Assembly: GCA_014240275.1 (NCBI GenBank)
Contig: JAAZXH010000006.1
Location: 12,749-76,748 of the forward strand
Length of the DNA: 64,000 bases
DNA from: Candidatus Peregrinibacteria bacterium
GTDB taxonomy: Bacteria; Patescibacteriota; Gracilibacteria; UBA1369; GCA-2718715
Reading direction: 5' to 3'
Position numbers and translations under genes: made by a program. Below the pieces are notes generated by a model, which was given only the letters and a program-made list of their open reading frames with translations, did not search any database and had not been told where the DNA came from. The first letter of the stretch is position 1, and each line of letters starts with the position of its first letter. This document shows positions 1,186 through 49,599 of this stretch, piece by piece.

Positions 1186-2613
1186 CTAAAGTCCAACTTG
1201 AAATTTAATATCTTCTAATTGTTTTTTTAAATTTAAATCTTTTTTCAAAGCCTTTCCTATTTTATTACAAGCATGCATAGCCGTTGTATGGTTACGTCCA
1301 CCAAATTCCATACCTATCTTTTCATAAGAATAACCAAAGTCTTTCCGCAAAATATAGATAGCAACCTGCCGAGGAATCATAATTTCACGACTTCTACGCT
1401 CGCCAACTAAATCAAAACGTGAAAGGTTATAAAAACAAGCTACTGTTTCTATAACATCCTTGCAAGATAACATTTTAGAACCAGGATTATGCTGATTCAA
1501 AGTAACTTCTTGCTTGGCAACTACCATTCCCATTTTCTGTAAAATACCGGTAACCATTTCAATACTTGCTGGCATTTGAATCAGCTTAGACTGTGCTACA
1601 ACCTGAGTTAAAATACCTTCAAGCTCTCTAATACTACCTTGAATATTTTGAGCCATAAAACTTAAAACTTCTTGGTCAATAAACAGCTGTTGTTGCTGAG
1701 ATTTTTGAATCAAAATAGCTAAACAAGTCTCATAATCGGGGCGTGAAATATCTACTATCATCCCCATTTCAAAGCGAGAAACTAAACGATCTTCAACACC
1801 AGCTAAATCCTTTGGAGGTTTATCAGAACTAATAATAATTTGCTTAGATTCATGATACAACTCATTAAAGGTATGGAAAAATTCTTCTTGGGTCCTTCCC
1901 TTTCCAGCTAAAAACTGAATATCGTCAATAATTAAACAATCGACATTTCTATACTTATTACGAAAGCTCTTCACTCCATTTTTTTTAATAGATTCAATAA
2001 TCTCATTAGTAAATTTTTCAGCAGTTACATAAACTACTACCGAAGAGGCACGATTTTTTAAAATTTCATTCCCTGTGCCTTGCAACAAATGAGTTTTACC
2101 TAAACCTACATTACCATATACAAACAAAGGGTTATACGCATGACCAGGTTTAATAGCTACTGCTTGACAAGCAGCTTGAGCTAAGCGATTATTATCTCCA
2201 ACTACAAAGTTTTCTAGAGTATATTTCTGATTCATCATTTTTGAAACAATCTGCGAAGAACCTCGAGCAGAATCACTAAACCTGTAACGCATTTCTTGCT
2301 TATTATTCACCTTACGTGAGGAAGTCTTTACCTTGCCAAAAATTTCTGGTAATTGAATTTTTTGTTCCGGAGTTAGTGTTTGAACAACAAATTCGAGATT
2401 TTCTACAGATAAGTTTAACTGAGCAAAAACTTCTAAAATTTGTTTATGATAACGTTTTTCAATCCACTCTTTCGCAAAAATACTTGGCACAGCAATATTG
2501 GCCTTTGAACCTTCTATTTGCAATAAAGCGGTATCACGAAACCAGACCATAAACTCGGCTCTTTTAATAACTCCACTGAGAGTTTTCAAAATTTTTATCC
2601 AGTTTTCATGCAT
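1186..2613 (-). CDS. dnaA: Chromosomal replication initiator DnaA
   Basis: Walker A GNVGLGKTHLL, Walker B LIIDDIQFL, sensor IRELEGIL, and domain IV RQVAIYILRK...GGRNHTTAMHACNKI. Confidence 0.95.
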   Translation of the reverse strand: MHENWIKILKTLSGVIKRAEFMVWFRDTALLQIEGSKANIAVPSIFAKEWIEKRYHKQILEVFAQLNLSVENLEFVVQTLTPEQKIQLPEIFGKVKTSSRKVNNKQEMRYRFSDSARGSSQIVSKMMNQKYTLENFVVGDNNRLAQAACQAVAIKPGHAYNPLFVYGNVGLGKTHLLQGTGNEILKNRASSVVVYVTAEKFTNEIIESIKKNGVKSFRNKYRNVDCLIIDDIQFLAGKGRTQEEFFHTFNELYHESKQIIISSDKPPKDLAGVEDRLVSRFEMGMIVDISRPDYETCLAILIQKSQQQQLFIDQEVLSFMAQNIQGSIRELEGILTQVVAQSKLIQMPASIEMVTGILQKMGMVVAKQEVTLNQHNPGSKMLSCKDVIETVACFYNLSRFDLVGERRSREIMIPRQVAIYILRKDFGYSYEKIGMEFGGRNHTTAMHACNKIGKALKKDLNLKKQLEDIKFQVGL

Positions 2614-9504: not shown

Positions 9505-11589
9505 ATGAACGTACTAAGCCTTCTACTAAATATCGAACTTTTAAATTTTGAAATCAGCAATCAAGAACTAGAACTTGAACTCAAAAATAGCTTTGACAAA
9601 AAACAAGTCTATGAACTTTATTTAGACAACCATAAAAACGATGAAGTCAAATTAGCAATTGGAGAAAATACAATCACAGTCGATATCGAGCAAACCATGA
9701 AACTCAAAAATATAATTTTAAAAAACAAAGATAATCAATACCTATTTCCTCTAGTCAAAGAACCACCAAACTGCGATTTATCTCAGAATGCATTTATCAA
9801 CGAGATTAATATCGAAGAAGACTTTATCGAAATATACCTTCCACAAAAAATTGAATATGATTTTCTATACCTAGAAATTGACCAAAAAAAAATCCCAGTA
9901 CCAAACACAGCTGGACTACATATAATCAAATACCAATTACCTAGGAGTAGTGAACAAATCAGTTTGAAACTCTTAAATAAAACTTTAGACGGAATTTGTT
10001 ATCAAAACCAAAGCATCACAGAAAGCGAACTCAACGAACAAAATCAATTCACTTTAACTCACGAAACAAACTGCATTACAACAGAAGCAATTCCTAAAAA
10101 AATGAGTTTAATAAGAACAAACTATCTAGCAAATATCAACACCAATAATTATAAACTTAGTTTAAAATCTACTCCAAACTCTTTACAAAGTCATTTTAAC
10201 AAAAAACCATACGCCGAAATTTCAGTAATCAACCAAGATCAAAACCAAATTAACTTAAGTGCAGAAGAATCAAATGATCCAAACTCAGACAAACTCAAAT
10301 ATCACTGGGAACTCAATAACAAACTGATCTCAAACAAAACCGAAATACTAGTCAATAAAACAAACTCAAATCAAATAATTAACTTAACAGTCGAAGACCC
10401 ACTAAAAATGCAAGATACAACACAATTCACAATTCCAAAAACTGAGACTACATCCAGCTCAAAACAAAACCGTACAACAAAAAACATTAATGAAACCACA
10501 CAACCAATAATGGAAATGCAAAATATACAAAAAACAAATACCATAAACCAAACACCAAATATCAAAATCATCAATCTTTTAGCAAATCCAAGTGGCAAAG
10601 ATCAGAAACAAGAGTGGATAGAATTAAAAAACTTAGGTACAGAGAGTATTAGCACAACCATACAACTCAAAGATACATCTAAACAAATAGAAACAATTCA
10701 AATTAAAAATTTAAAACCTCAAGCAAGCATTAAACATTATCTCAACAAAATAACCTTAAATAATCAAACAGAAGAACTGAAGCTAGTATATAACGAACAA
10801 ACCATACAAGAGATCCAATACCATAACGCACAAGAAGGTCAAATTATAAACCCAAGCAAAACCAACAGTCAACAACAAGAAGAAAAACCAAACAAAAATA
10901 AAAACACACAAGAAGAAAATACAACACAAAGCGAACAGAAAGAACACACAGAAATCCAGAATTCCAAAATAATTGATTTAAAAATTTCAGAAATTTACCC
11001 CAATCCAAACGCTAATGAAAAAGAATGGATAGAAATATACAACAACTCAAATCAAGATGTCAATAACTTTGATTTTCAGATTCTAATCAACAACAGTAAG
11101 AAAAAAAATCCAACATTCACCATACCCAGCAAAGCTTATAAACTAATAGAAGTTTCAAGAATCAACAATCAAGAAGCTCAAATCAGCCTGAAACAAGGTG
11201 ACAGAATCATTGATCAAATTAATTACTCTAAAAGTCTAAAAGGAGAAAGCTTTAGCAAAATAAACCAAATCTTTTATTGGACCAAAGTTATAACACCAGG
11301 AGAAAAAAACCCAATTTTTCAAGAACTTAACGGAACAATCAATTCAATTGAAGATCAAACATTTGAACTTAACAAGCAAAAAATTATCGGAACAATTGAT
11401 AACAAATTCCTAAATCAGAAATTGACACTTCAAATCCTCAAACATAATTCAGACTTATATCTCCAAAAAATTATCAGTATTGAACAAAAAAGCACTACAA
11501 AAATAAGTTCAAAAACAAAAACTATTATTGCAAGCTCTCTAGGTATCTTTACCTTTTGCATAGGAAGTTTAATCAAACACCTTAGCTAA
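9505..11589 (+). CDS. Lamin-tail-domain (LTD) surface protein, Asn/Gln/Lys/Thr-rich, C-terminal TM anchor
   Basis: Two LTD-like segments (INLLANPSGKDQKQEWIELKN; ISEIYPNPNANEKEWIEIYNN), a PKD-like SNDPNSDKLKYHWELN, and a C-terminal hydrophobic helix. Confidence 0.7.
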   Translation: MNVLSLLLNIELLNFEISNQELELELKNSFDKKQVYELYLDNHKNDEVKLAIGENTITVDIEQTMKLKNIILKNKDNQYLFPLVKEPPNCDLSQNAFINEINIEEDFIEIYLPQKIEYDFLYLEIDQKKIPVPNTAGLHIIKYQLPRSSEQISLKLLNKTLDGICYQNQSITESELNEQNQFTLTHETNCITTEAIPKKMSLIRTNYLANINTNNYKLSLKSTPNSLQSHFNKKPYAEISVINQDQNQINLSAEESNDPNSDKLKYHWELNNKLISNKTEILVNKTNSNQIINLTVEDPLKMQDTTQFTIPKTETTSSSKQNRTTKNINETTQPIMEMQNIQKTNTINQTPNIKIINLLANPSGKDQKQEWIELKNLGTESISTTIQLKDTSKQIETIQIKNLKPQASIKHYLNKITLNNQTEELKLVYNEQTIQEIQYHNAQEGQIINPSKTNSQQQEEKPNKNKNTQEENTTQSEQKEHTEIQNSKIIDLKISEIYPNPNANEKEWIEIYNNSNQDVNNFDFQILINNSKKKNPTFTIPSKAYKLIEVSRINNQEAQISLKQGDRIIDQINYSKSLKGESFSKINQIFYWTKVITPGEKNPIFQELNGTINSIEDQTFELNKQKIIGTIDNKFLNQKLTLQILKHNSDLYLQKIISIEQKSTTKISSKTKTIIASSLGIFTFCIGSLIKHLS

Positions 11590-16744: not shown

Positions 16745-18475
16745 ATGATCAATGATTTACTCAAAAAACAGTTTCAAACATTGATCAAACTCCTACAACT
16801 CAGACAAGAAAAAACTGATTTTTTTCGTATTCGCTCTTACCAAAAAGTAGTAGATACCTTAGACACCCTCACCTACCCTATTTCTGAAATTGTAGATTTA
16901 AAAACTCATACCTTTACTGAAAAAATTGATGGGTTTGGCAAAAACTCTATGGATAAAATCATAGAATTTATAGAACACAAAAAAATTCATGAAATTGAAA
17001 AGTTATTGGAAATTTACCCCCAAAGTCTAATCAACCTTACCGACATTCAGGGCCTTGGACCCAAAACCTTGCGACTCTTACACGACACCTTCCATATTCA
17101 AAACTCTAAAGATTTAAAAAAAGCCCTTAAAGACCCAAAAGTTTACGACCTACCCCGGATGGGAGAAAAAACGGTTCATAAGATCCTTCACAATTTAGAA
17201 ATTCACCTACTAGCCAAACAACGCAAAGCCATAGGTGATATTTATACGGATATTATAGAACTTAAAAACACCATTCAATCCATACCTGAAGTTCAAGATT
17301 GCGAAATTGCAGGATCCTTTAGACGCTTTAAAGAAAGCGTGGGAGATATCGATATTTTAATTACCTGCCATCCAAAAAACCAGTCTCAAGTAATCCAATC
17401 TATCACTGAACTTGCAGCGATTAACCAAATTATTAACCAAGGAGAAACCAAAATCACAGCTTTGATCAAAGACAAACTCCAAGTTGACTTTCGCATAGTA
17501 AAACCAGAAGAATTTGGGTCAGCTTTAATGTACTTTACAGGGAGCAAACAACACAACATTTTAATTCGCAAACTCGCAATTGAAAAACAAATGAAAGTCT
17601 CAGAGTATGGAATTTTTGACAAAAACGACAAACTCTTAGCATCCCAAACCGAACAAGAAATTTACAAGAAATTAGGTCTTAATTACATCCCACCCGAAAA
17701 CAGACTCGGAACAGATGAAATAGCATATGCCAAAAACAACAACTATGAAAACCAGCTTCAGATTACAGATATTCAAGGAGACCTACATCTACACAGCACC
17801 TACTCTGACGGTCGCAATACAATTTTTGAAATGGCACAGAAAGCTCAAAAATTAAATTACCAATTTTTAGCAATAACTGACCATTCCAAAAGTTTAAAAA
17901 TAGCATCTGGTCTTTCTAAAAACACAATGCAAGAAAAACTTTTAGAAATACAAAAAATCCAAACAAGTTTAGAAATTCAACTTTTAATGGGAACCGAAGT
18001 AGATATCATGCCAGATGGTTCCCTAGATTACTCAGACCAAACACTTAACATGTGCGACATAGTAGTTGCCAGCGTACACCAAGGGATGACTCACGGCTAT
18101 CAAGCCAGAATCTTAAAAGCCATTGAAAACCCACACGTTACTATAATTGGACACTTAACAGGAAGAGAATACGGAAAACGCGAAGCCCAAAACCTAGACT
18201 TCGATTTGATTTTCAAAGCCTGTCATAAAAACCAAGTCGTTCTAGAAATAAACTGCCAGCCAAGGCGATTTGACATCAACTGGAAACTTGCAACCCAAGC
18301 CAAAAAACACAACTGCTTGTTTAGTATCAATACCGACGCCCACAGCACCAAGCAACTAGACAACATGCACTTTGGAATCAAAATTGCCAACAAAGCCATG
18401 TTAAACAGATCGCAAATTATCAATACTTGGTCAGTCGAAAAGTTAAAGCAAATTAAAAAACAAAAGCTAAATTAG
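16745..18475 (+). CDS. polX: DNA polymerase X family protein with C-terminal PHP domain
   Basis: HhH motifs (GLGPKT, GEKT), the Pol-beta nucleotidyltransferase motif GSFRRFKESVGDIDIL, and PHP histidines (GDLHLHSTYSDG, ITDHS, NTDAHS). Confidence 0.9.
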   Translation: MINDLLKKQFQTLIKLLQLRQEKTDFFRIRSYQKVVDTLDTLTYPISEIVDLKTHTFTEKIDGFGKNSMDKIIEFIEHKKIHEIEKLLEIYPQSLINLTDIQGLGPKTLRLLHDTFHIQNSKDLKKALKDPKVYDLPRMGEKTVHKILHNLEIHLLAKQRKAIGDIYTDIIELKNTIQSIPEVQDCEIAGSFRRFKESVGDIDILITCHPKNQSQVIQSITELAAINQIINQGETKITALIKDKLQVDFRIVKPEEFGSALMYFTGSKQHNILIRKLAIEKQMKVSEYGIFDKNDKLLASQTEQEIYKKLGLNYIPPENRLGTDEIAYAKNNNYENQLQITDIQGDLHLHSTYSDGRNTIFEMAQKAQKLNYQFLAITDHSKSLKIASGLSKNTMQEKLLEIQKIQTSLEIQLLMGTEVDIMPDGSLDYSDQTLNMCDIVVASVHQGMTHGYQARILKAIENPHVTIIGHLTGREYGKREAQNLDFDLIFKACHKNQVVLEINCQPRRFDINWKLATQAKKHNCLFSINTDAHSTKQLDNMHFGIKIANKAMLNRSQIINTWSVEKLKQIKKQKLN

Positions 18476-19366: not shown

Positions 19367-19872
19367 ACCCTAAGTAGATAACTCAATAAAAAACCAATTA
19401 AATAAGCAATACCAGCTGCTACACCCCCTAAAAGCAACGTTTCTGATGCAGCTTTAATACAACTTTCTTTCAAAAATAAACTCTTTAAAAAACCTACTAA
19501 AGCTAAAGCCAAACTAGTTAAAGCTATGGTCCAAGCAAAACTATTGCATGCAAATTCAAATAAGGCATCGTAAACATAAATCAAAAGCGGAATTGAACCT
19601 AAAACTAAAAATGCCACAAAAGTCATTAAACCACCAAGCAAAGCCTTATGCTTGGAAGCTTTACTTGCACTTTCAGTCTTTTCAGATAAATATTTAGAAA
19701 CCCCCATTGAAAAGCCATCAGCAACAAGGTTAGATAAACCTAAAATTAAAATTACTGCTGGTGACAAACCACCACCCTCAACTCCCGCCACTACCGCAAA
19801 GGTAGTTATGATTCCATCGATGGAACCATATACAAAGTCTGGTAAAAATTTTCTATCCAAAAATTTAAGCAT
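19363..19872 (-). CDS. VIT1/CCC1-family iron/manganese transporter
   Basis: DGIITTFAVVAG motif and 5 TM segments. It overlaps the upstream antiporter gene by 8 nt. Confidence 0.8.
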   Translation of the reverse strand: MLKFLDRKFLPDFVYGSIDGIITTFAVVAGVEGGGLSPAVILILGLSNLVADGFSMGVSKYLSEKTESASKASKHKALLGGLMTFVAFLVLGSIPLLIYVYDALFEFACNSFAWTIALTSLALALVGFLKSLFLKESCIKAASETLLLGGVAAGIAYLIGFLLSYLLRV

Positions 19873-20836
19873 TTAAAACTAAATAAGTGATATATGAAAA
19901 ATAAATCAATACAAACAAATAACCTTGAGAACGCTGCAAAATATGCTTTTTACCAATAAACATAAACAGAAATAATAACAAGGCCGCTAAAATCGAAACT
20001 ATAACATCAACATTCGACAAAGCCGCATTAAAATTTAAAGGATTAATAGTCGAAGACAAACCAAGTATCCAAAAAACATTAAAAAGATTTGAACCAACCA
20101 CGTTCCCTACTGCAATGTCAGCATGTCCTTTACGTGCAGCAACAATACTAGTTGCTAACTCTGGCAAAGATGTACCAATTGCCACGACAGTTAGACCAAT
20201 AAGGGTTTCTGTAAGACCAAAATTCTTAGCTATCATCATTGCCCCTTCTACTATCCACTGGCCACCCAAAGCCAGACCCAACATACCAAGAATAATAAAT
20301 ATCGTAGATTTTGAATTAGACAACTCATCTACCTTTTCACCTTCTGCATCGTTGGTATTTTTTGCTATCCCAAAACTGTAATACATAAAAACCACAAAGA
20401 ACGCCAGCAAAGAAATACCATCAATCCGCGAAAGCGTATTAAAATTCATACCGTCTAACATTGCATCGTTGACCATGAAAAACAAAAGCAAAACCGAGAG
20501 CAACACCAAGGGAATCTCCTTCCATACAGTATTTGATTTAACTTTCAAAGGACAAATTGCAGCCGCCACCCCAAGGATCAAAAAAATATTGGCAATGTTT
20601 GAACCTATCACATTTGAAATAGCTAAATCTGAACTACCCTTAAAAGCAGCCAAAAGGTTTACAATAAGCTCCGGCGCTGAAGTTCCAAAGGCAACAATAG
20701 TTAACCCTATTACCAAATTTGAAATTTTCATCTTTTTGGCAACCGAAGAAGCCCCAGATACCAACAAATCGGCACCCTTGATTAAGAAACAAAATCCAAG
20801 TACAAATAAAAAATAGGTTAATACCATGTTCATCAA
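19865..20836 (-). CDS. Ca2+/Na+ antiporter (CaCA, YrbG type)
   Basis: Two alpha-repeats (GTSAPE...GSNIANI and GTSLPE...GSNLFNV) in a 10-TM protein. Confidence 0.9.
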   Translation of the reverse strand: MMNMVLTYFLFVLGFCFLIKGADLLVSGASSVAKKMKISNLVIGLTIVAFGTSAPELIVNLLAAFKGSSDLAISNVIGSNIANIFLILGVAAAICPLKVKSNTVWKEIPLVLLSVLLLFFMVNDAMLDGMNFNTLSRIDGISLLAFFVVFMYYSFGIAKNTNDAEGEKVDELSNSKSTIFIILGMLGLALGGQWIVEGAMMIAKNFGLTETLIGLTVVAIGTSLPELATSIVAARKGHADIAVGNVVGSNLFNVFWILGLSSTINPLNFNAALSNVDVIVSILAALLLFLFMFIGKKHILQRSQGYLFVLIYFSYITYLVLNA

Positions 20837-20881: not shown

Positions 20882-22669
20882 TTACGCATGAGTCAGATAG
20901 TCTACAGCAACCAAATAGTGCTTACCATCCAAAGAAACTCTAGCGTATGCCAGAAATTTACCATCTGCCACTTCACGTATCACGGGATTTGCATCAACAA
21001 CCTCCATAGCCAAGCCTGATTTTTCAGTTATAGTATTGGCTACAGATTCAAATCCATCACTCCATAACCTTAAATTAGAGTTGGCATTGGCAGTATTTGC
21101 AACAACCTCTTGCCCTGTATTAAAAGAAATATCGTCAGCGGCTTTTTCGGCAGTTGTTGTAACTCCGTTACCAAAATTATCAGAAATTGTACCTGCCGTA
21201 TTATAAGCTGAAGAAGGCAAATGACTCTTAACAGAAGTTACAGGCTGAGAATGTTCAAGCTCATCTTCATTATCAAAATTATAACTCTCATCATTATCAG
21301 CATTTGTGTCAGCCTGCTCACCAGCAGTTGTACCAGCCTGATTCTCTACAAGCGGTTCAGTCCCAGCAGTTATACCAGCCTGATTCTCTACAAGCGGTTC
21401 AGTCCCAGCAGTTGTACCAGCCTGATTCTCTACAAGCGGTTCAGTCCCAGCAGTTATACCAGCCTGATTCTCTACAAGCGGTTCAGTCCCAGCAGTTATA
21501 CCAGCTTGATTATCTACAGGCAGTTCAGGCCCAGCAGTTATACCAGGCAGATTATCTAAAGGCAGTTCAGTCCCAGCAGTTGTACCAGCCTGATTCTCTA
21601 CAGGCAGTTCAGTCCCAGCAGTTGTACCAGGCAGATTATCTAAAGGCACCTCAGTCCCAGCAGTTATACCAGCCTGATTCTCTACAGGTAGTTCAGTCCC
21701 AGCCCCAAAAAACCAATCAGAAGCAGAACTTAAAGATTCTAAAGGAGAATTCACAAATGCGTCAAACCCGGGTTTTAGAGCTTCAATGCCAGCAGACAAA
21801 CCAGTTTTCAAAGCAAAAGAACCCAAACAAGCAAGGCCAGCCGTTGCAGCAAAGCGTCCAGCTTTACGCTTCCAAAATTTATAACGTGATGCGGTAGCTT
21901 GTTCAGCCTGATTTACGAGTACTTCACCACCCTTTCCCTCTACAGTTTCGCGCCTTTGATAAAAATTATATAAGTTTTGTTTTGCCTTCTTAAAGTCCTC
22001 TCGGGTTTTCGCACGACGAGCCTTATATGCAGCATCTATTAATAATTCTTCCTCAGTAAACTTAATAAACTTCGAAGAACCCTTTGATGCAACCTTCCAC
22101 ATACTAGCAGTTCCATAAGCAAGAGCAGCAACAGGGACATAATGTGCAGTTGCACCTACCATCACAGTAGTTAAAGCGAACTTATAGGCCTTACCTTTAA
22201 AACCATCACGAGCTCTAAAAGGGTCCACAACTGTTAACAACTTACTATTAGTAATATTACTCCAAATACTACTTACAGTAGAACACATTTTACTCTCCCC
22301 CTCATACTGCAAATCTTCCATTAAGCTTAGATAAGATGGTTGAGAAATCATAGTTTGCCCCTCTCTTTCCAAGCCGGTATAAGCTGTAACCATTGTAGGA
22401 GTTTCCGCTGCATTATTAAATGATGCTGAGCCATCGCTCAGAGAAGTAATCGGCACACTATTAACATCCAAATAACTATCGTTATTCCCCCCATTCGTTA
22501 CAGAAGCAGTCTGCGAAACAGAGACTTCTTGAGAGGTATCTTCATTCCGCCCCTCCCGATTTGGAGTCAATTTTAACAAAGCAGATTTTAAAAACGATCT
22601 CACACGCCCCACTTTAGGATCATCACCTAAAGTATGAGCTTCAACACTGCCAGTATTTTCAATAGACAT
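20882..22669 (-). CDS. Hypothetical membrane protein, paralog 1 (variable N-terminus, TM core, 9 x 14-aa repeats, conserved C-terminal domain)
   Basis: 595-aa ORF. It shares the LAYGTAxxW..ASKG..EELL core and the C-terminal LWS(D/E)GF...P(V/I)(I/V)RE(V/I)A(D/E)GKF(L/M)AYA module with 22730-24454. A TTGACA-type promoter is at 22715-22720. Confidence 0.7.
   Translation of the reverse strand: MSIENTGSVEAHTLGDDPKVGRVRSFLKSALLKLTPNREGRNEDTSQEVSVSQTASVTNGGNNDSYLDVNSVPITSLSDGSASFNNAAETPTMVTAYTGLEREGQTMISQPSYLSLMEDLQYEGESKMCSTVSSIWSNITNSKLLTVVDPFRARDGFKGKAYKFALTTVMVGATAHYVPVAALAYGTASMWKVASKGSSKFIKFTEEELLIDAAYKARRAKTREDFKKAKQNLYNFYQRRETVEGKGGEVLVNQAEQATASRYKFWKRKAGRFAATAGLACLGSFALKTGLSAGIEALKPGFDAFVNSPLESLSSASDWFFGAGTELPVENQAGITAGTEVPLDNLPGTTAGTELPVENQAGTTAGTELPLDNLPGITAGPELPVDNQAGITAGTEPLVENQAGITAGTEPLVENQAGTTAGTEPLVENQAGITAGTEPLVENQAGTTAGEQADTNADNDESYNFDNEDELEHSQPVTSVKSHLPSSAYNTAGTISDNFGNGVTTTAEKAADDISFNTGQEVVANTANANSNLRLWSDGFESVANTITEKSGLAMEVVDANPVIREVADGKFLAYARVSLDGKHYLVAVDYLTHA
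21321..21703 (-). repeat. Tandem 42-bp coding repeat, about 9 copies
   Basis: ccagcagtt recurs at 21321, 21363, 21405 and onward with an exact 42-nt period. It encodes AGTE(L/P)(P/L)VENQAGIT units. The copies at 21321-21488 differ only at a single A/G site. Confidence 0.95.
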
Positions 22670-22729
22670 AACTATAACTTATATATAGAGAAAAATATAT
22701 AAAAATACAACTTATGTCAAATACTATTA

Positions 22730-24454
22730 CTAATTTTGGACCAACTTTGCATAAGCTGTTGATACCAAATAATCCTGACCTTTATATTGGACCTGAGCAT
22801 AAGCCATAAATTTACCTTCTGCAATTTCACGAACAATAGGAGTCTTAGATTGAACAGTTAACTCAGAAAAGCTAGATGGATCTATTCGTGCAGCGATTTT
22901 ATCAAAACCTTCTGACCACAAACTTACACGAGAATTAGCATTTTCAGTAAGAACAACTAACTTTTCCCCAACATTTTGGCTAAAAGAATTATAAGCCGCC
23001 TCCGCACTGTTATAAACACCACCTAATTTAGCACCACTCAAATTTTCAACAGAGTTATAAGCAGATTCTTGCAAATGACTTTCAACAGTAACCTGATCCC
23101 AATCTTCAAAGACATAATCATCTTTTTGTATAGTAGGTTCAGGGGTAGAACTAGTTTCAGGAACAACTTTATCTGGATTAAGATTAGATTCAGGTATTGT
23201 TTTTTGAACCACGTTGTTACCAGTATCCTCAGATGGAAGCTCAGAAGCACTAGAACCCACACCCAACACTTCTAAAGCCTTTCCAGCTACATAAGTTGAT
23301 AGAGCAGAAAGACCAAGCGAACCTGCGAGAGCTAAACCTCTGCGTTTCCATTTTCTCTTTTTTCTTTCTTTCTTAGAGTTTGAATGTTCAACCTCATAAA
23401 ATTTATCTAGAGCATTTTCAGAACCGAACTCGCGTTTATCATAAGAGGCTGTTAACTGTACTTTTTGATCGCTACGCTGATTATAGTATTTAGTCAGATT
23501 CCCTAAAGATTCATGGTACCCATAATTTGTATCAGCATATTGTGCTTTTCTTACATCTTCTAACAATAGCTCCTCTTGGGTCTTTGGTATAATTTTTTCA
23601 GCCCCCTTACTTGCAAGCCCATACCAATTAGCAGTTCCATAAGCTAAAGATGTAGCACCTAATACAAACTTTGCAGTCACAACTCCAGCCCCTATCGCTG
23701 GTAAAGCATAAGCTCCAGCAGTAAAAGCCGCTACCGAACCTAGCATTTTAAAGCCCATACCTTTGCGAGTTTTTGGATAGAAACATTTTGAGACTTTAGT
23801 TTTACAACGATTTAACCAAGTCGAACCTTTATAAGTAAAACCATAGTTAGTAAGAGTTCGAGGCACAGCAGGGTATGGATCATCATATGTAACCTTTATT
23901 TCATCTAACACAACAGCTTCTTCAGACTGAGTCTTAATTGAATTTAAAATATCATCTAATGACTCAAGTTCTAACTCGGACTCAGAAACCTTTTCTATTC
24001 TTATAATTTTTACCAACTCATGACATTGAAACTCTTGTAAAATCGCTTCATTCATAAATAGCTCCTCACATTGACTACCTATTTGTAAGTCTACCCTTAA
24101 ATCACAACCCTGCTTGTAAGTTCGATATTTCGTCAAACGACCATGCAAAATTGCCTGATCAATTAGCGGGTTATGCGGGTCCTCTGGAAGATGAGCTTCT
24201 CTTTCCTCTGCAATTTCAAAAACCTTCGACATTGTATCCTTAAATTCGGCATCCGAATCATCTACCAGTAATGGACCATTATAGTTAGACTCTTCTTCTG
24301 TTAGCATTAATGTATTAGCAAAACAATCTAGTTCATTATAAAGAGAATTAGGACGTTCAGTTAAGGTAGGAGGTTTATGCTTTGGACGTTGAGGCCGATG
24401 AGGTTGAAAACTAGAACCTTGATCATTAAAGCTTGGTACTGAATTCATATACAA
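22730..24454 (-). CDS. Hypothetical membrane protein, paralog 2
   Basis: 574-aa ORF with the same TM core and C-terminal module as 20882-22669, but an unrelated N-terminal ~230 aa and no 42-bp repeats. It has its own TTGACA promoter at 24495-24500. Confidence 0.7.
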   Translation of the reverse strand: MYMNSVPSFNDQGSSFQPHRPQRPKHKPPTLTERPNSLYNELDCFANTLMLTEEESNYNGPLLVDDSDAEFKDTMSKVFEIAEEREAHLPEDPHNPLIDQAILHGRLTKYRTYKQGCDLRVDLQIGSQCEELFMNEAILQEFQCHELVKIIRIEKVSESELELESLDDILNSIKTQSEEAVVLDEIKVTYDDPYPAVPRTLTNYGFTYKGSTWLNRCKTKVSKCFYPKTRKGMGFKMLGSVAAFTAGAYALPAIGAGVVTAKFVLGATSLAYGTANWYGLASKGAEKIIPKTQEELLLEDVRKAQYADTNYGYHESLGNLTKYYNQRSDQKVQLTASYDKREFGSENALDKFYEVEHSNSKKERKKRKWKRRGLALAGSLGLSALSTYVAGKALEVLGVGSSASELPSEDTGNNVVQKTIPESNLNPDKVVPETSSTPEPTIQKDDYVFEDWDQVTVESHLQESAYNSVENLSGAKLGGVYNSAEAAYNSFSQNVGEKLVVLTENANSRVSLWSEGFDKIAARIDPSSFSELTVQSKTPIVREIAEGKFMAYAQVQYKGQDYLVSTAYAKLVQN

Positions 24455-24516: not shown

Positions 24517-26829
24517 TTATGAAGCAGTTACAAATATCGTATAAAGTTTACCATCTTCAGCCTGTACACTTCGGTAAACAACAGTATTGTTTAAGTTTAA
24601 ATCCTCCAAAGATTCAAGTAAAGAACTTGGATAAGCAAATACATTCATAGTAACACGATATGATGTAAAGCCTAAATCATTTGGTAAAAGATCTAACAAA
24701 GACTGTCCATCGATACTGACTTCGTAACGGTTTTTTTCTTTCATAATCACTACCCAAGCATCAAGCGCATCAAGTAAAGCCTGGTTAGAATTAATAGCTG
24801 GATAAGCTAGAGAAATACCTTGATCAAATTCATTAAAGGCTAAAGTTGCATCATAAGAAAACTCTTGCACATAATGTAAGGCGTTATCAGCATCTAAAGT
24901 GGCGCCAAAACCTACCGAGGTCCAATCTGGATTTAATATGTTTTTCCGGTGAATAGCGCTGCGCATCAACAATTGATTCGCAGCCAAAACTCCTCCAAAA
25001 TTATTGTAAGTTAAATTTTCACCAACAAAAGAAGTAATATTAAAGCGAGTCCGTCTGTCGTTTGGACCTTCTGAATTATGATCAACATGGCCAACAAAAT
25101 CATTATTTACCATATTATCAGAGTGATACTGAGCCAATTGATTCAAAGTCGCATCAATAGTTACCGGATCTAAACCATACTTAGTTCTATAAGCATTAAC
25201 CAAAGTTAAAGACTCATCAATTGTTTGCTGTAAATTAAAATTACTAATTGCTTGAAAACTATTAGAAGCTCGAAAATCAGGAATTACAGGCCATAAACCT
25301 TCTATGTAAATTGGATGGTTAACTTCGGCAAAACCAGATTCATTATTAATCTCAATAAAATACACTCCAGAATCAGCCAAGCTGTAGTTTACGCTAAAAT
25401 TAGCTCCATTTATACTAACTCCATCGTTGACTTTTTCAACCAAACCATTGGGCATGATTACAAACAAATCATCACTTAAAGTCGCCGAAGTAGTTCCAGT
25501 AAGTTGTAAGTTTTGACCTTGGGTATAAGTATATGGCAAATCAATATTAGTAGCTTCATTGATATCCGAATAATGATTTTCAACTACATCTAATTTCAGA
25601 GTTTTTGCAACGCCCAAATTTGAAATTAACTCTACATCCATTTCACCTTCATCAAAACCTTCAAACCAAGCAGAGCTCACATAATATTTACCAGCAGACT
25701 TTAATTTTATAGAAACAGTTTTATTAGCAATAAAACGTAGTTCAAAAGCTCCAGGAACATTACCAGTCACATTTACATAAGGTCTGCCATCAAAACCAAA
25801 ATCTAAATTTAGCTCTTCCAAACGATCGGCTATTAAGCTTAAATCAGAAATAGTAATTGGCAACAATTTGGCAGTATTGCTTCCATTTGGATAAATTGTG
25901 AATTTCGAACTATTTGCATCTGGTACCAATACATCCGCTTCAAAGGATCCATTAACTACAACCACTTCAGACTTGGTTAAAGAACCATCTGCCGCTTCAA
26001 AAGCTACAAAAACCTTGGTAGCACCATTGGTTACTTTACCTGTAACTTTTTTCATATAAGATTTATGCCAAGTATTATCAAAGTTTTCAGGCAACTCAAT
26101 ATTATCAAAAAAGTCAGAGGCTACTACCGGGCCTTGGGCTACATCAGGCTGAACCTCAACCTCTGGTTCAGAAGCTGACTCAGGATCTACATTCGGCTCA
26201 ACTTCTGGCGTGATTTCAGCAGCTTCAGCCTGTGGAACTTCTGGATTCAAATCATCAGAAGTCAAAACACGATAAAAAATTTCTGCGAGTTCTCCCCTAT
26301 TAATAGCTTTATTAGGAAGCAAAGCTCGTTTAAATGGCAAAAGATCTAAGTTATCAGCAGTCACCACGTAAGCAAAAAACCAGTTATCCATTTTATTATC
26401 AAAAAAGGTGTTTTCAAAAGTAGACTTTTCTTCTATCTGCATAGCTTCCATTGCAATTTTTAAGGCTTCCGCACGAGAAATATTTTGAGCCGGCTTAAAC
26501 AAATTCCCCTCATAACCCTTTACCAAACCAAGCTTTTTAGCAGTACAAACATAACTATTGTACCATTGGTCCAAAGGCACATCGGCAAAACAGTCGCTTG
26601 CCTCCTCCAGCTCAACCTTAGTTGAAAGCATAATTATCTTTAACGCCTCTGCTCTATTTATACTATTTGCTGGTTTATAAGTTCCATCATCATAACCCTC
26701 AACAATTTTTTGGTCCTTTAAATATTGAATTCCATCGGCATACTTATGGTCAGAGCCAACATCCGAAAAAATAGCAGCAAAAGCTACATTTATAAGCAAA
26801 GGTAAAATTAATAAATATTTTTTAAACAT
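24517..26829 (-). CDS. Secreted SLH-domain protein with C-terminal CAP/SCP (PR-1-like) domain
   Basis: Signal peptide and three SLH repeats (FSDVGSDHKYADGIQYL..., FADVPLDQWYNSYV..., FFDNKMDNWFFAYV...). Then an acidic linker, a beta-rich middle and a CAP-like YRTKYGLDPV...HSDNMVNNDFVGHV...GENL region. Confidence 0.8.
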   Translation of the reverse strand: MFKKYLLILPLLINVAFAAIFSDVGSDHKYADGIQYLKDQKIVEGYDDGTYKPANSINRAEALKIIMLSTKVELEEASDCFADVPLDQWYNSYVCTAKKLGLVKGYEGNLFKPAQNISRAEALKIAMEAMQIEEKSTFENTFFDNKMDNWFFAYVVTADNLDLLPFKRALLPNKAINRGELAEIFYRVLTSDDLNPEVPQAEAAEITPEVEPNVDPESASEPEVEVQPDVAQGPVVASDFFDNIELPENFDNTWHKSYMKKVTGKVTNGATKVFVAFEAADGSLTKSEVVVVNGSFEADVLVPDANSSKFTIYPNGSNTAKLLPITISDLSLIADRLEELNLDFGFDGRPYVNVTGNVPGAFELRFIANKTVSIKLKSAGKYYVSSAWFEGFDEGEMDVELISNLGVAKTLKLDVVENHYSDINEATNIDLPYTYTQGQNLQLTGTTSATLSDDLFVIMPNGLVEKVNDGVSINGANFSVNYSLADSGVYFIEINNESGFAEVNHPIYIEGLWPVIPDFRASNSFQAISNFNLQQTIDESLTLVNAYRTKYGLDPVTIDATLNQLAQYHSDNMVNNDFVGHVDHNSEGPNDRRTRFNITSFVGENLTYNNFGGVLAANQLLMRSAIHRKNILNPDWTSVGFGATLDADNALHYVQEFSYDATLAFNEFDQGISLAYPAINSNQALLDALDAWVVIMKEKNRYEVSIDGQSLLDLLPNDLGFTSYRVTMNVFAYPSSLLESLEDLNLNNTVVYRSVQAEDGKLYTIFVTAS

Positions 26830-28119: not shown

Positions 28120-30621
28120 TTATTCAGGTTTAAAACCAATTCTGTTTTGAACTTCTTTATCTACAAATTTCTTAGCACGAGCGTATTTCAAACGTACATA
28201 TTGCTTAATCTTAGCAGCTAAAACAGGATTCGACTTACTTTGGTCATATAGCGTTTGCATAGAAAAAGGACGAGAGGTAGTATTACGAATATTTAATTTA
28301 ACGTAAGCCTTGTAGTTAGCAATATTAATTACATCTTGCTCAGATAAGGCTGGTGCGTATTCTTTAGCTAAATATTCAGCATCTTCGGCACCTACTTTAA
28401 AACTCATCATAGTACCCACATTACCAAATACCGCATCTTTAATTGCCGAAGATGAATTACCAAACTTCGAAACAGTCAACTGGTTAATATACTGATGGGC
28501 CATAATTAAGTTTAAGCGATATTTACGAGCTTCAGACAAAATTGTAGCAAAAGAATCGGTTGCAAAGTTTTGGAATTCATCCACATACAAATAAAAATCC
28601 TTCCTATCTTTTTTAGGTATATCTGCACGACTCATAGCCGCCATCTGAATTTTAGAAACCAACACCAGCCCCAATAACTGAGTATTTAGATCCCCTATCT
28701 TACCTTTTGAAAGATTAATTAATAAAATCTTTTTCTCATCCATACATTTACGTACATCAAAAGCCGAACTTTTTTGGCCTATAGTATTTCTCATTATGGT
28801 ATTTGTAATAAAAGGTCCAAATTTACTTGAAAAATATGGAACCATTTCTTGCCGTTCTCTTTGACCCGTATTCGCGTACTCATGCTCCCAAAAAGATTTT
28901 ACTACCGGATTACTACATTTTGAAACCTTATATTTCATAAAGGCATCATCGGTAAAAATCCTTGGTACATCGATCAAAGTTGCTCCTTCATCTGGATCTT
29001 CCATCAAAGTCAAACAAGCATTTCTAAAATAATGCTGAATTCGCGGACCAAAAATCTCATCTCCAAATAGTTTAATAAAAATTTCCGTAGCATTCGATGA
29101 GGCCATATCCATTTCGTTCGGCTCACTAGCCTCCAAGATGTTCAGGCCCATTGGCCTTTCTGTATCTGCTGGGTTAAAAACTATCACATCTTTTACCCTT
29201 TCTTTAGGGACAAAGCACAACAAATCTTCAATCAAATCTCCATGTGGATCAACAACACAAACCCCGTCTCCATTCCAGATATCTTGACGAGCCATAAAGT
29301 TCAAAAACACAGATTTACCAGAACCCGACTTCCCTATTACATACTGATGTCTAGTTCTATCATCACGTAAAAATTTAATTTTTGTTCGAACCCCCCGAAA
29401 AATATTATCACCTAAATAAACACCTTCAGTTGGAACATCTGGCGGTGGAGCCAAAACTTTATACTTCAACCATTTAATCGATGGAGTAAAGTTGTAAATA
29501 GAATCAGGAAAATGCACAATATTAGCCAATTCATCTGGAACCATTACAGAGGACTTTTCAAAAAACTTGAAATAACGAGCCTTATAGTTTTTTTGCATCA
29601 ACCAATTATTGATAGAGTCGATCGGAACAATACGTCTCATTTGAAACCAATTTGAAGAAGCATCCTTAAAAGCATTAAAAGCCACAAAAACACTGTTCAA
29701 AATTTCTATCGTACGGGCTTTGGTAGGAGTTATAGCATACAATCGAATCACAGTATCAAAACCTAATTGCGCAGATTTCAAACCAATATTTTTAGCGACA
29801 TCCTCGTTAGCTTGTAACATACGCACATAGCCATCACCTCCAGATGCACCCGGTGCATTGGATTTACCAAGACCAGATTTTTCACTCCCTACAAACAAAG
29901 TTAAAATTAAACGTAGTAAGAAACCAATAACAGGAACTCTAAAATGCTTTTTATTTGGATCCTTTCCTTTAAAAAGCTGAGTACCAAAGGCATTAGCTTT
30001 GTCTTGCCACTTATCTAAACGAGGTCTTATAGATAAATTAATCATCGCAAATTCATCAGCCTCCATTTTTGAAAAAACATTTGTCAAAACATTCAAAGGA
30101 TCATTTTCAATTTCTTTGTACATTTTAATTGGATACCAGTTAGTTCTTTGCAAATAAGCAAAATAAGACCTAGCATAACCTTTTTTCTTTTTGAAATCCA
30201 AAGGGTCATATACATCAACAGAGGCAGTAGAATAATATGAAGTAATTTGCTTTTCCAACAAATCTTTGTATTCATAAAAAGTAGATACTCGAAATTCAAT
30301 AACAGAATTCTCACAAACTATATCAAAATTCACAATATCTAAACCAAATAGCCACACTCTAAATTTATTGCCTAAATCTAGCTCTCCTATTTCATGAATA
30401 GAACGATACAGCTGACTCATAATACCAATTTTTTCGTGAAAATCTTTTTCCACCTCTTCTTGTCTATCTTTTTGAGAATCACTTCTTGGTAACAATATGG
30501 TATACCGCACGATCTGATTTTTCTTTAACTTAGCCATGTGGTGGTGTAAAAATGATTTCAAACCTTTAATCCCCAAGTATAAAAAAACCAATAATACCAA
30601 TACTAAAATCACAGTGCGCAT
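28120..30621 (-). CDS. VirD4/TraG/TraD-like (type IV coupling protein family) membrane-anchored ATPase
   Basis: N-terminal TM, Walker A GKSGSGKSVFLNFM followed by VVDPHGDL, Walker B FYLYVDEFQNF, and C-terminal RKYRLNLIMAHQYINQL. The start is set at Met21 (30621) because an extended -10 (TGATATAAT, 30647-30655) lies inside the longer ORF. Confidence 0.75.
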   Translation of the reverse strand: MRTVILVLVLLVFLYLGIKGLKSFLHHHMAKLKKNQIVRYTILLPRSDSQKDRQEEVEKDFHEKIGIMSQLYRSIHEIGELDLGNKFRVWLFGLDIVNFDIVCENSVIEFRVSTFYEYKDLLEKQITSYYSTASVDVYDPLDFKKKKGYARSYFAYLQRTNWYPIKMYKEIENDPLNVLTNVFSKMEADEFAMINLSIRPRLDKWQDKANAFGTQLFKGKDPNKKHFRVPVIGFLLRLILTLFVGSEKSGLGKSNAPGASGGDGYVRMLQANEDVAKNIGLKSAQLGFDTVIRLYAITPTKARTIEILNSVFVAFNAFKDASSNWFQMRRIVPIDSINNWLMQKNYKARYFKFFEKSSVMVPDELANIVHFPDSIYNFTPSIKWLKYKVLAPPPDVPTEGVYLGDNIFRGVRTKIKFLRDDRTRHQYVIGKSGSGKSVFLNFMARQDIWNGDGVCVVDPHGDLIEDLLCFVPKERVKDVIVFNPADTERPMGLNILEASEPNEMDMASSNATEIFIKLFGDEIFGPRIQHYFRNACLTLMEDPDEGATLIDVPRIFTDDAFMKYKVSKCSNPVVKSFWEHEYANTGQRERQEMVPYFSSKFGPFITNTIMRNTIGQKSSAFDVRKCMDEKKILLINLSKGKIGDLNTQLLGLVLVSKIQMAAMSRADIPKKDRKDFYLYVDEFQNFATDSFATILSEARKYRLNLIMAHQYINQLTVSKFGNSSSAIKDAVFGNVGTMMSFKVGAEDAEYLAKEYAPALSEQDVINIANYKAYVKLNIRNTTSRPFSMQTLYDQSKSNPVLAAKIKQYVRLKYARAKKFVDKEVQNRIGFKPE

Positions 30622-30766
30622 AAATGTTTTTTTTAAAAACAAAATAATTATATCATAAAGAAAGCACTTCCCAAAAGTCACAACTTAAGGCAGACAACGG
30701 AACAAATAAAAAGCAAGCAGTAAATTTATTGCAAAAAATAAAAAAACTACAAGTATAATTTCTATA

Positions 30767-32029
30767 TTAAAAATCTTTCATATTAATCAACCGAGTTCCT
30801 GGATCGAACACATTTGGATCCGTTAAAAAACGAGGATCAGATATTGAAAAGACCCGAGTGTCACCCATCCCTCTGCTTCTAAACTGCCCATGACCCAGAG
30901 ACAGATCCCTCACAGAAGGTACAGCATGCCGAGATTGAACCGCCTCAATAAGTTTACCTTTTGAATCAACAGGTTGACCCAATGTATTAAAAAATTGGGT
31001 AGGGATTAAAGGCTCAAAGCCTTCCCTTGACATACTTTGAACCGGATCCTCAGGCACAGGACTTGCAAACAAACGGGTTGTTGCAGAGTTAGGCTCACTA
31101 TCATAATCGGATAAAGCTTTATGTACATCTAAAGTATCAATAGGGATAGTATCAGAGTCATTTTGAAACGGTTGAAAAGCTGGCGAACTTATTGAAAAAG
31201 TTGACCAAGTAAAATCTTGAGCCCTCTCCCTACCATCAACTCCATCGCGCCCTAACCCCAACCAAAAATATCCGTTAGGCAAATAATAATTTAAACAAGA
31301 AGCAAATGAATTAAGGTCAAACACATGTATAGAAGACTGAAAACTTTTCACTAAAGGATGCTGGGGAGAACCTGAAAAAATCTCAAATAACCCCTGAGAC
31401 ATCAACTGACAATTTCTTAAATCAGACATCACACCCTTTTGATAAATAGCCGTAGGATGATCTGGTCGGACAAAGTTCATCAAATCAAGCTCCTGAAAAC
31501 CAAAACCTGACAACGAATCCCTCCACTCTGGAGTAGCATAACGAAACACTTCAGGATAATTCAAAACATCATTGTCTTTTACCAATATATTACTACCAAC
31601 CGTAAGATATCCATATTCACCAGTTGGAATAGGAAATAACACAACAATACTAGCTTGAACATTCCTATTAAAAGACAAAGTACTTCTAACAGAACACAAT
31701 AAATCTGACAACTTAGAAGTAACATAATCAAGATAAAACTTAGACTTACCATCTAATCCGTTTTCATCAGGTAAACAAAAGATATTACCTGTTTTAAATT
31801 GCAAACCATAAGAGTCCAACTGTTTGTTAATTTCATTCCAAAATCGCGTATCAGATAAAACTTCATTTAAACGCTCAGTAAAAGCAGATACCTGGCTTCG
31901 GGCACCTCTTGATTCAACACCTATAAACTGACCAGTTTCAAGCATCGAAAGACCGTTAGAAAAACTACCACTACCTATATATCCATGACCAACACCTTTA
32001 TTATAAACGTACTGAGAATTGATAGACAT
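30767..32029 (-). CDS. Hypothetical protein (420 aa), no recognisable family
   Basis: Long intact ORF on the same strand, immediately upstream of the VirD4-like gene. It has no TM segment or signal peptide, and its composition is less AT-biased than its neighbours. Confidence 0.6.
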   Translation of the reverse strand: MSINSQYVYNKGVGHGYIGSGSFSNGLSMLETGQFIGVESRGARSQVSAFTERLNEVLSDTRFWNEINKQLDSYGLQFKTGNIFCLPDENGLDGKSKFYLDYVTSKLSDLLCSVRSTLSFNRNVQASIVVLFPIPTGEYGYLTVGSNILVKDNDVLNYPEVFRYATPEWRDSLSGFGFQELDLMNFVRPDHPTAIYQKGVMSDLRNCQLMSQGLFEIFSGSPQHPLVKSFQSSIHVFDLNSFASCLNYYLPNGYFWLGLGRDGVDGRERAQDFTWSTFSISSPAFQPFQNDSDTIPIDTLDVHKALSDYDSEPNSATTRLFASPVPEDPVQSMSREGFEPLIPTQFFNTLGQPVDSKGKLIEAVQSRHAVPSVRDLSLGHGQFRSRGMGDTRVFSISDPRFLTDPNVFDPGTRLINMKDF

Positions 32030-49245: not shown

Positions 49246-49260
49246 AAATATAAATTATTA

Positions 49261-49599
49261 CCCTTTAAAATCATAAGCCGAGTTCTGTTAGCATAAATGC
49301 CGTGGTCATCTATCTGGGCCTAAACTCACGCCTAGGCTCTTGCGATGGGCAACCTAATAACTTTAAGACCAAGTTTTACATAGGTTCCCGTCCCATCTTG
49401 CATCAGGTAGGGTTTACCAGGTTCCTCTAGTTACCTAGAGGCCCAGGCCTAAAGCCTGCTTTTCACCTTTCACCTTGCGGCTAGTATTGTCTCTGTGGCA
49501 CTTTCCCTAAGCTTGCGCTCGGCAGACGTTATCTGCTACCCGTCTTAACGATGCTCGGACTTTCCTCACCAAATTGGCGTAACCACTCCTTTTAAAGGG
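49261..49599 (-). ncRNA. rnpB: RNase P RNA, bacterial type A
   Basis: The minus strand reads CCCUUUAAAAGG...GAGGAAAGUCCG (P4 5' strand)...GUGCCACAGAGACAA...GGUGAAAGGUGAAAAG...ACAGAACUCGGCUUAUGAUUUUAAAGGG. The 5' CCCUUUAAAA pairs with the 3' UUUUAAAGGG (P1). Length 339 nt. Confidence 0.9.

Follow-up and report, generated by a model that had tools for sequence, protein, structure and literature searches.

MapZ/LocZ, RodZ and FtsN are bitopic proteins in which a variable or disordered cytoplasmic N-terminus is followed by a membrane anchor, a Ser/Pro/Thr-rich linker and a small conserved C-terminal wall-binding domain. Bacteria of the candidate phyla radiation (CPR) are believed to attach to partner cells by means of surface proteins, and orphan, fast-evolving membrane or surface proteins are common in CPR genomes. 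Here we describe two neighbouring genes, A and B, in a 64,000-nucleotide stretch of a Candidatus Peregrinibacteria genome (assembly GCA_014240275.1, contig JAAZXH010000006.1, positions 12,749 to 76,748; the whole stretch is called the window below), whose products resemble the MapZ/LocZ, RodZ and FtsN type in plan only. They differ from it in an added putative hydrophobic hairpin and a ~90-residue basic helical segment before the anchor, and in a setting with no division or elongation genes nearby; at E ≤ 1 Pfam finds in them no zf-HC2/RskA, no HTH + DUF4115, no MapZ domain and no SPOR domain. A second likeness is to SH3b wall-targeting domains (the CPF_0587 SH3 of C. perfringens, 2krs; the phiSM101 endolysin, 4krt; lysostaphin SH3b, 5leo), which are also small, mostly-beta C-terminal domains that follow a flexible linker outside the membrane, a location that for A and B is predicted; the module of A and B differs in carrying an extra N-terminal helical part (SHLP.SAYN...). 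The lysostaphin pre-pro repeats (Lysostaphin_N) are, like the linker repeats of this family, acidic, Pro-containing 13–14-aa tandem repeats with 'PVEN'. Lysostaphin_N gives a compositional-looking match to one homologue of A and B (from locus L004, described below; E = 0.038, 14.5 bits, cut-off 60) and no match to A itself, whose repeats lie between the anchor and the C-terminal domain and not in a propeptide.

A and B are real genes and diverged tandem paralogues, and we propose, at a probability of roughly 45%, that they encode a lineage-restricted, envelope-spanning surface protein of a narrow Candidatus Peribacteria clade that binds a wall or surface ligand. In such a protein the variable acidic N-terminal tail would remain in the cytoplasm, a 30–45-residue uncharged Ala/Gly/Pro-rich stretch ending with AYGT..W..AS.G would form a hairpin in the membrane, ~80–95 residues of basic helical sequence would lie on the cytoplasmic face, and a small-residue-rich helix after a polybasic cluster would span the membrane. 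The acidic linker, built of a tandem repeat or rich in Pro/Ser/Thr, would form a stalk through the wall and the ~115-residue beta-rich C-terminal domain would be exposed outside the cell, where its ligand would be part of the cell wall, the S-layer or a partner cell. Such a protein would serve as a tether or as a surface receptor, and its exposed and disordered parts would diversify rapidly. The two genes and the promoter-like sites ahead of them lie as follows.

20882..22669, minus strand: gene A, an open reading frame (ORF) of 595 aa
22730..24454, minus strand: gene B, an ORF of 574 aa counted from the TTG at 24454
22692..22720, minus strand: promoter-like site of gene A (TTGACA, 17-bp spacer, TATTTT), 51 bp before the start codon
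24473..24501, minus strand: promoter-like site of gene B (TTGACA, 17-bp spacer, TG-TAGCAT), 47 bp upstream

BLASTP aligns the C-terminal modules of A and B at 39% identity over 131 aa (E = 9e-25) and their hydrophobic and charged cores at 35% identity over 118 aa (E = 3e-11), and returns no alignment for the N-terminal 130–210 residues. This bears out an earlier sequence-only reading of the locus, which had described tandem paralogues with a shared core, a shared C-terminal module and unrelated N-termini. All of the motifs it quoted are literally present in the translations: ALAYGTASMW..ASKG in A and SLAYGTANWY..ASKG in B, EELLI and EELLL in the core, and SHLPSSAYN/SHLQESAYN, ANS...LWS(D/E)GF and P(V/I)(I/V)RE(V/I)A(D/E)GKF(L/M)AYA in the C-terminal module. 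Searching the 64-kb window with tblastn revealed no family copies beyond A and B. For gene B the ATG at 24448 is a more likely start than the TTG at 24454, because the database gene call (P0001), which begins at that ATG, is 572 aa long. No Shine-Dalgarno sequence is obvious ahead of A or B.

The sequence-only reading had also given each gene its own TTGACA promoter, and an exact TTGACA box, followed after a 17-bp spacer by a −10-like hexamer, indeed lies ahead of both. It is reasonable to regard the two predicted promoters as exceeding chance expectation, because TTGACA is sparse in the window (27 sites in 64 kb, 93% of it coding) yet clustered at gene starts: seven of the 50 window genes are preceded by a correctly oriented box at a distance of 27–81 bp, A (51 bp) and B (47 bp) among them, and in six of the 50, again including A and B, it lies 47–55 bp upstream of the start codon. 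From this spacing pattern it seems that the −35 box of this CPR genome is canonical and that its leaders are short. A gene-prediction artefact was rejected on the grounds that the ORFs run to ~600 codons in AT-rich DNA, have conserved homologues and show a ratio of non-synonymous to synonymous polymorphism (pN/pS) of ~0.24.

Both proteins can be divided into six regions, to which the linker repeat of A is added.

A residues 1-160, 22190..22669, minus strand: variable acidic Ser/Thr/Asn-rich N-terminal tail (by composition), probably cytoplasmic
A residues 161-191, 22097..22189, minus strand: uncharged Ala/Gly/Val/Thr/Pro-rich stretch ending in LAYGTASMW, putative membrane hairpin
A residues 192-272, 21854..22096, minus strand: basic helical segment ASKG...EEELLID...NLYNFY...KFWKRKAGR, net charge +10, probably cytoplasmic
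A residues 273-298, 21776..21853, minus strand: small-residue-rich putative transmembrane anchor
A residues 299-478, 21236..21775, minus strand: acidic linker (by composition) that contains the repeat array
A linker tandem repeat, 21321..21703, minus strand: 42 bp x 9.1 copies, 90% matches, 14-aa unit AGTELPVENQAGIT
A residues 479-595, 20885..21235, minus strand: conserved C-terminal beta-rich module
B residues 1-234, 23753..24454, minus strand: N-terminal region, predicted with low confidence to be partly helical
B residues 235-278, 23621..23752, minus strand: uncharged Ala/Gly-rich stretch with a central Pro, ending in LAYGTANWY, putative membrane hairpin
B residues 279-372, 23339..23620, minus strand: basic helical segment, net charge +6, ending in KKERKKRKWKRR
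B residues 373-399, 23258..23338, minus strand: small-residue-rich putative transmembrane anchor
B residues 400-456, 23087..23257, minus strand: non-repetitive Pro/Ser/Thr/Glu linker
B residues 457-574, 22733..23086, minus strand: conserved C-terminal beta-rich module

The conserved core consists of (a) a PF(K/R)AR-like basic stretch, (b) 30–45 nearly uncharged Ala/Gly/Val/Thr/Pro residues ending in AYGT..W..AS.G, (c) 80–95 net basic residues, predicted to be helical, with EE.L(I/L)(D/E)...NL..YY...KFWKRKA.RF, and (d) ~25 hydrophobic residues rich in small ones. The core motif is kept in four proteins, namely A, B and the homologues of loci L001 and L004, and in all of them the stretch corresponding to A residues 161–191 is conserved. 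Upstream of the core the similarity ends: just the last ~20 of the first 160 residues of A, the PF(K/R)AR region before the hydrophobic stretch, align with B. In B the first ~210 residues are unrelated to the N-terminal region of A, and the alignment of the cores starts near residue 211. The linkers are, as had been read from the sequence, a repeat array in A and a Pro/Ser/Thr linker in B, and across the family the linker (repeat or Pro-rich, acidic) is independent in sequence in each lineage, a 14-aa 'TAGTE' unit being common to A and L004. The repeat of A also gives rise, as antisense by-products, to plus-strand ORFs at 21221-21559 and 21304-21897. The otherwise unrelated N-terminal tails carry a common short basic amphipathic Ser/Phe/Trp/Lys motif, in the versions VRSFLKSALLKL, GLKSWFSNKFSRSKK and KSFLDKAKEL...IFGVFGSW, and as SVFSRGLSWGSKLMSSIF in a PP2C protein of the kind discussed below (sites: A residues 20–35, window ~22565-22612; L001:7290-7340; L004:7300-7400; L007:2110-2180). 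It may be a membrane- or partner-binding helix and is too short for statistics.

The distribution of charge along A and B fits the positive-inside expectation for a protein with its N-terminus in, a hairpin, a loop in and its C-terminus out. The loop between the two hydrophobic segments has a net charge of +10 in A and +6 in B, the sequence downstream of the second segment −36 and −12, respectively, and a polybasic cluster stands directly ahead of the second segment in both proteins (KFWKRKAGR in A, KKERKKRKWKRR in B). The candidate segments themselves are 26–44 residues long, nearly free of charge and contain prolines, inside otherwise highly charged proteins. Neither an N-terminal hydrophobic signal nor, by Pfam, an SLH domain was found in A or B, the SLH domains sitting in the upstream neighbour (24517-26829).

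The family is extremely narrow. When 1.84 billion representative proteins were searched with a HMMER profile built on the core and the C-terminal module that A and B share, only B, P0002 (59 aa) and P0003 (144 aa) were returned, and a word-indexed homology search with A or B returned B itself or nothing, missing even the paralogue. Looked up as exact sequences, A and B had no record. A 46-bit degenerate DNA pattern, made by hand for (V/I)(I/V)RE(I/V)A..KF(L/M)AYA, matched twice in the window and in one Candidatus Peribacteria metagenome-assembled genome (MAG) among 185,579 species genomes, and had no match in JGI metagenome contigs or IMG/VR viral contigs; alignment of the core against metagenome contigs confirmed none of 600 pattern matches. 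Relatives were recovered through the fragments P0002 and P0003 and through synteny, with the Na/Ca exchanger gene as anchor, and the family so delimited comprises three Candidatus Peribacteria lineages and one strain fragment. The family that the sequence-only reading had supposed is real, but it does not have many members, four proteins or fragments being detectable in the 1.84 billion representative proteins and one more by synteny. Two genes frame the position of A and B.

24517..26829, minus strand: SLH + CAP secreted wall protein, 770 aa, carrying a pair of SLH domains and, at the C-terminus, a CAP/SCP domain (Pfam SLH 3.7e-26, CAP 1.1e-15)
19865..20836, minus strand: Na/Ca exchanger gene, downstream of A and kept in every related locus (Pfam 7.1e-65)

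The minus-strand gene order in the window is SLH+CAP wall protein, B, A, Na/Ca exchanger and VIT1. The SLH+CAP gene lies directly upstream of B, is not homologous to A or B and is kept in every related locus, and the slot between it and the exchanger gene is occupied by the family gene in L001 and L004 as well. The first of these, L001, is a 19.6-kb contig of the Peribacteria MAG that the DNA pattern matched; the contig carries P0003 and follows the gene order of the window (VirD4-like, PGK, SLH+CAP, family gene, Na/Ca exchanger, VIT1, PolX, IMPDH, ZnuABC). Its family gene is one ORF of ~710 codons, interrupted solely by an N run in a Pro-rich repeat (NDTPVPP...); an alternative genetic code was rejected as the cause of the split, which is this N run and not stop codons. 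Compared with A, the L001 protein shows 35% identity in the core over 217 aa (E = 3e-26; 34–35% over 217–250 aa) and 39% in the C-terminal module (114 aa); compared with B, the module shows 38%.

In the second relative, L004/L005, the exchanger is 75% identical to that of the window, and the slot of L004 holds a single 895-aa gene that starts 2 bp after the SLH+CAP gene, a gap that hints at an operon. Its hydrophobic core is 27% identical over 192 aa to that of L001 (E = 4e-9) and matches A at E = 5e-4 (BLASTP), it contains a 42-bp 'LTAGTE' repeat (x2.1) and a 117-bp repeat (x2.1), and of its C-terminal end the final hairpin alone is common with A and B. The strain fragment, L002 (P0002), is a strain-level variant of the C-terminal end of A at 87% nucleotide identity. 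In this 539-bp ENA contig (L002:204-539) the match to the window continues across the intergenic region into the first codons of the Na/Ca exchanger and is then lost completely, owing either to a rearrangement or to an assembly chimera.

One copy each of the family gene is present in L001 and L004, and the tandem pair is peculiar to the source genome. The identities between the C-terminal modules of A and B, A and L001, and B and L001 all fall between 38 and 39.5%. A is the positional and sequence orthologue of the single-copy gene, and B is an old, extra, diverged paralogue. Between the window and L001 the family gene is 34–39% identical and the flanking genes 54–92%, which makes it the fastest-evolving gene of the syntenic block. 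Across all relatives identity is 22–39%, the N-terminal tails range from 140 to ~500 aa and differ, and so do the linker repeats; N-termini and linkers are replaced outright between lineages. This agrees with the diversification by module replacement proposed from the sequence, N-terminal tails and linkers differing among relatives that are 22–39% identical beside flanks at 54–92%. The same proposal had named homologues that are single-copy and invariant as the contrary outcome: single-copy they are outside the source genome, and they are far from invariant. Between close strains the picture differs, as the comparison of A with L002 gives a pN/pS of ~0.24 over 60 codons, and this one comparison shows the C-terminal module under purifying selection.

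Searches for known families bear out the statement that none could be recognised. A matches no Pfam family at E ≤ 1 and B gives just 12-bit matches (DUF7517, Rv2743c) against cut-offs of 27; the best NCBIfam match reaches 15 bits against a cut-off of 419, PHROGs and PADLOC yield nothing below E = 0.079, and single-sequence and profile searches of PDB sequences yield nothing below E = 1. Structure prediction for the C-terminal module, which had been suggested as a check, delivered a beta-rich model, but its fold matches are non-significant. The AlphaFold2 (AF2) model has a mean confidence (pLDDT) of 64.6 and a predicted template-modelling score (pTM) of 0.61, with a pLDDT of 75–84 over most of residues 31–120, and shows one or two helices followed by seven strands. 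The top Foldseek match in the PDB is the SH3 domain 2krs (E = 0.13, probability 0.94, template-modelling score 0.34 by query and 0.56 by target, non-significant), followed, again without significance, by Tudor, chromo, KOW and other SH3 small barrels, and against BFVD by scattered SH3b-bearing lysins (E 0.2–1, non-significant). A possible SH3-like small barrel is, for this model, a lead and not a result. A and B constitute a previously unannotated protein family of familiar general character, with no sign of a new kind of system.

For the envelope-spanning reading we infer membrane insertion, orientation, fold class, ligand binding and function alike, and several results weigh against it. The segments of A and B are marginally hydrophobic, with Kyte-Doolittle (KD19) maxima of 1.41–1.66 and summed Hessa values of +4.0 to +4.4, and are matched by buried helices of GroEL and IMPDH from the same genome (KD19 1.64–1.75, Hessa +3.3 to +4.3); true transmembrane segments of that genome have KD19 values of 2.0–2.9 and Hessa values of −2.5 to +0.3, and transmembrane or signal segments taken together range in Hessa from −2.5 to +3.1. 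The full-length AF2 model of B is uninformative (pLDDT 35), with the hydrophobic segments as low-confidence helices, and the model of the C-terminal module rests on an alignment of four sequences. Foldseek returned no match at E < 0.03 in the PDB or BFVD, SH3 families gave no Pfam match at E ≤ 10 to the isolated C-terminal modules of A, B, P0003, L004p or L006p, and an hhalign profile comparison of A5 and A9 with lysostaphin SH3b assigned a probability of 0.3%. Conservation of the neighbourhood was seen in two to three close genomes with a fully syntenic block, which makes it weak evidence.

The hydropathy values also speak for an alternative that we consider unlikely, in which A and B are not inserted in the membrane at all and are soluble or peripheral cytoplasmic proteins, the Ala/Gly-rich helices forming a buried core or a coiled assembly and the linker an intracellular disordered spacer. 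The hydropathy of the segments, no higher than that of the GroEL and IMPDH buried helices, the lack of a signal peptide in A and B and the low confidence of the AF2 helices at this point are all consistent with such a protein. However, it would leave unaccounted for the uncharged, Pro-containing runs of 30–45 residues with basic flanks that are conserved in four very divergent homologues, the polybasic cluster before the second segment with strongly acidic sequence after it, the Pro/Thr/Ser and tandem-repeat acidic linkers, which are typical of wall-spanning stalks, and the neighbouring envelope protein genes. Membrane insertion of A and B is likely yet insecure, because the charge asymmetry fits it while the hydrophobicity is at the level of buried helices; the description of A and B as membrane proteins is thus plausible by charge and finds no backing in a hydropathy equal to that of the GroEL and IMPDH helices.

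A special case of the envelope-spanning reading replaces the cell's own wall with a foreign ligand: in an episymbiotic CPR bacterium A and B would recognise the host or partner cell as adhesins or receptors, or would serve as phage-receptor decoys, and their duplication and repeat expansion would be the trace of an arms race. We think this improbable. It would suit a gene that evolves fastest in its block, is duplicated in one lineage and contains near-identical repeats prone to copy-number change, and Peribacteria have been proposed to be symbionts, with strain variation concentrated in large extracellular proteins (PMC4736985). The C-terminal module, however, is small and under purifying selection between close strains (a single strain comparison, 60 codons), and no adhesin-type domain was found in A or B.

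The sequence-only reading had allowed for a signalling role as well as a surface role, and this part is unsupported, as A and B contain no kinase, phosphatase, anti-sigma or HTH module. It has to be weighed nonetheless against what occupies the same slot in more distant loci. In L006–L010 and two JGI contigs, whose Na/Ca exchangers are 67–69% identical to that of the window, against 75–84% in the clade of the window, the slot protein differs from A and B: it is 1100–1280 aa long, with a PP2C_2 domain (present in L007–L010, weak in L006 at E = 0.0016), a single, clearly hydrophobic transmembrane helix and a C-terminal end rich in beta structure.

L006:2-3052, L007:2062-5562, L008:1962-5519, L009:2811-6503, L010:3062-6562: the PP2C slot proteins
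L007:5669-6946, L008:5624-6946, L009:6611-7945, L010:6669-7946: an extra 425–444-aa protein

The PP2C_2 proteins are like A and B in their slot and in the order of cytoplasmic part, anchor and beta-rich end with a ...G..Y...Y(A/L)K-like hairpin, and differ in lacking the AYGT core, in being far longer and in their one clearly hydrophobic transmembrane helix. Pfam finds no PP2C domain in A or B at E ≤ 1, an all-against-all BLASTP finds no match between the A/B family and the PP2C proteins at E < 0.01, and profile searches in both directions stay at or below ~1 bit. hhalign, applied to the C-terminal ends of both groups, aligns 23 columns of the last hairpin at a non-significant P = 0.013 and a probability of 3%, and by eye the C-terminal end of the L004 protein aligns with the PP2C-protein ends, with invariant R, G, G, L, G and G. 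The PP2C proteins are positional counterparts of A and B, for which common descent is possible. Two further observations concern these loci: between L006p and L007p1 similarity is undetectable outside the PP2C motif, and the marine clade has the soluble 425–444-aa protein listed above between the PP2C protein and the Na/Ca exchanger, with no Pfam match, 56% identity between L007 and L008 and no detectable homology to A or B.

One could conclude from these loci that A and B are transmembrane signalling proteins, reduced or derived from the PP2C-phosphatase, single-transmembrane, beta-rich proteins of the slot, with the outside module acting as sensor of a wall or surface cue and the cytoplasmic tail as its relay, for instance in the form of a phospho-substrate or docking site. 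The shared slot across L006–L010 and the two JGI contigs, the by-eye alignment of L004p, a proven family member, with the PP2C-protein ends and the hhalign match of the last hairpin (P = 0.013) all speak for it. We nevertheless regard it as a poor prospect, given that BLASTP, phmmer, hmmsearch and hhalign (3%) show no significant similarity, that Pfam finds neither PP2C nor any other signalling domain in A or B, that no kinase, sigma factor or response regulator adjoins them, and that a shared position in a variable slot is equally explicable by non-orthologous replacement. The more specific history, in which A and B and the PP2C, transmembrane and beta-domain proteins all descend from one transmembrane Ser/Thr-phosphatase sensor at a conserved Peribacteria envelope-sensor locus, with the catalytic domain lost, a hairpin and disordered tail gained in its stead and the gene duplicated, is very improbable; if true it would document a rarely recorded change, from signalling receptor to structural or decoy surface protein in a CPR symbiont, and the C-terminal domain common to both groups would represent a new fold that binds wall or host.

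The setting of the genes is chromosomal. The window, at ~35% G+C, holds dnaA (1186-2613, minus strand), groEL, RNase Y, IMPDH, PolX, PGK, a VirD4/TraG-like ATPase and RNase P RNA (49258-49598, minus strand), and a mobile element or phage origin was rejected in view of the missing PHROG or viral matches and the syntenic chromosomal housekeeping context (dnaA, groEL, PGK, IMPDH). No tRNA genes lie in the 64-kb window, and the GC skew is negative throughout (−0.08 to −0.31). The VirD4/TraG-like type IV coupling ATPase (28120-30681, minus strand, 853 aa) is the most conserved gene of the block, 92% identical to that of L001; relatives also carry DUF8128, and the ATPase gene is adjoined by a 420-aa ORF (30767-32029) with no family match. 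PolX (16745-18475, plus strand) has a C-terminal PHP domain, as in L001, L004 and L006 (571–612 aa), and in the marine clade it is ~430 aa long and without PHP (L007:9424-10716, L008:9402-10700, L009:10427-11719). A 694-aa protein (9505-11589, plus strand) gives a sub-threshold match to the lamin-tail domain (LTD; 30.3 bits, Pfam cut-off 34.3) and keeps its place beside the ZnuABC genes in all related loci.

Peribacteria are a class in the phylum Peregrinibacteriota, and the paper on the first Peribacteria genomes stresses that these organisms invest heavily in wall and envelope, carry S-layer genes and have extracellular proteins that vary between strains (PMC4736985). The family of A and B opens no long-standing question. 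Anchoring on synteny brought out both homologues and positional counterparts where profile searching of 1.84 billion proteins had missed them, and such genes fall below detection fast, retaining 34–39% identity or none while their neighbours keep 54–92%. If the envelope-spanning reading is true, A and B would add a very narrowly distributed new protein family to the poorly understood CPR cell envelope.

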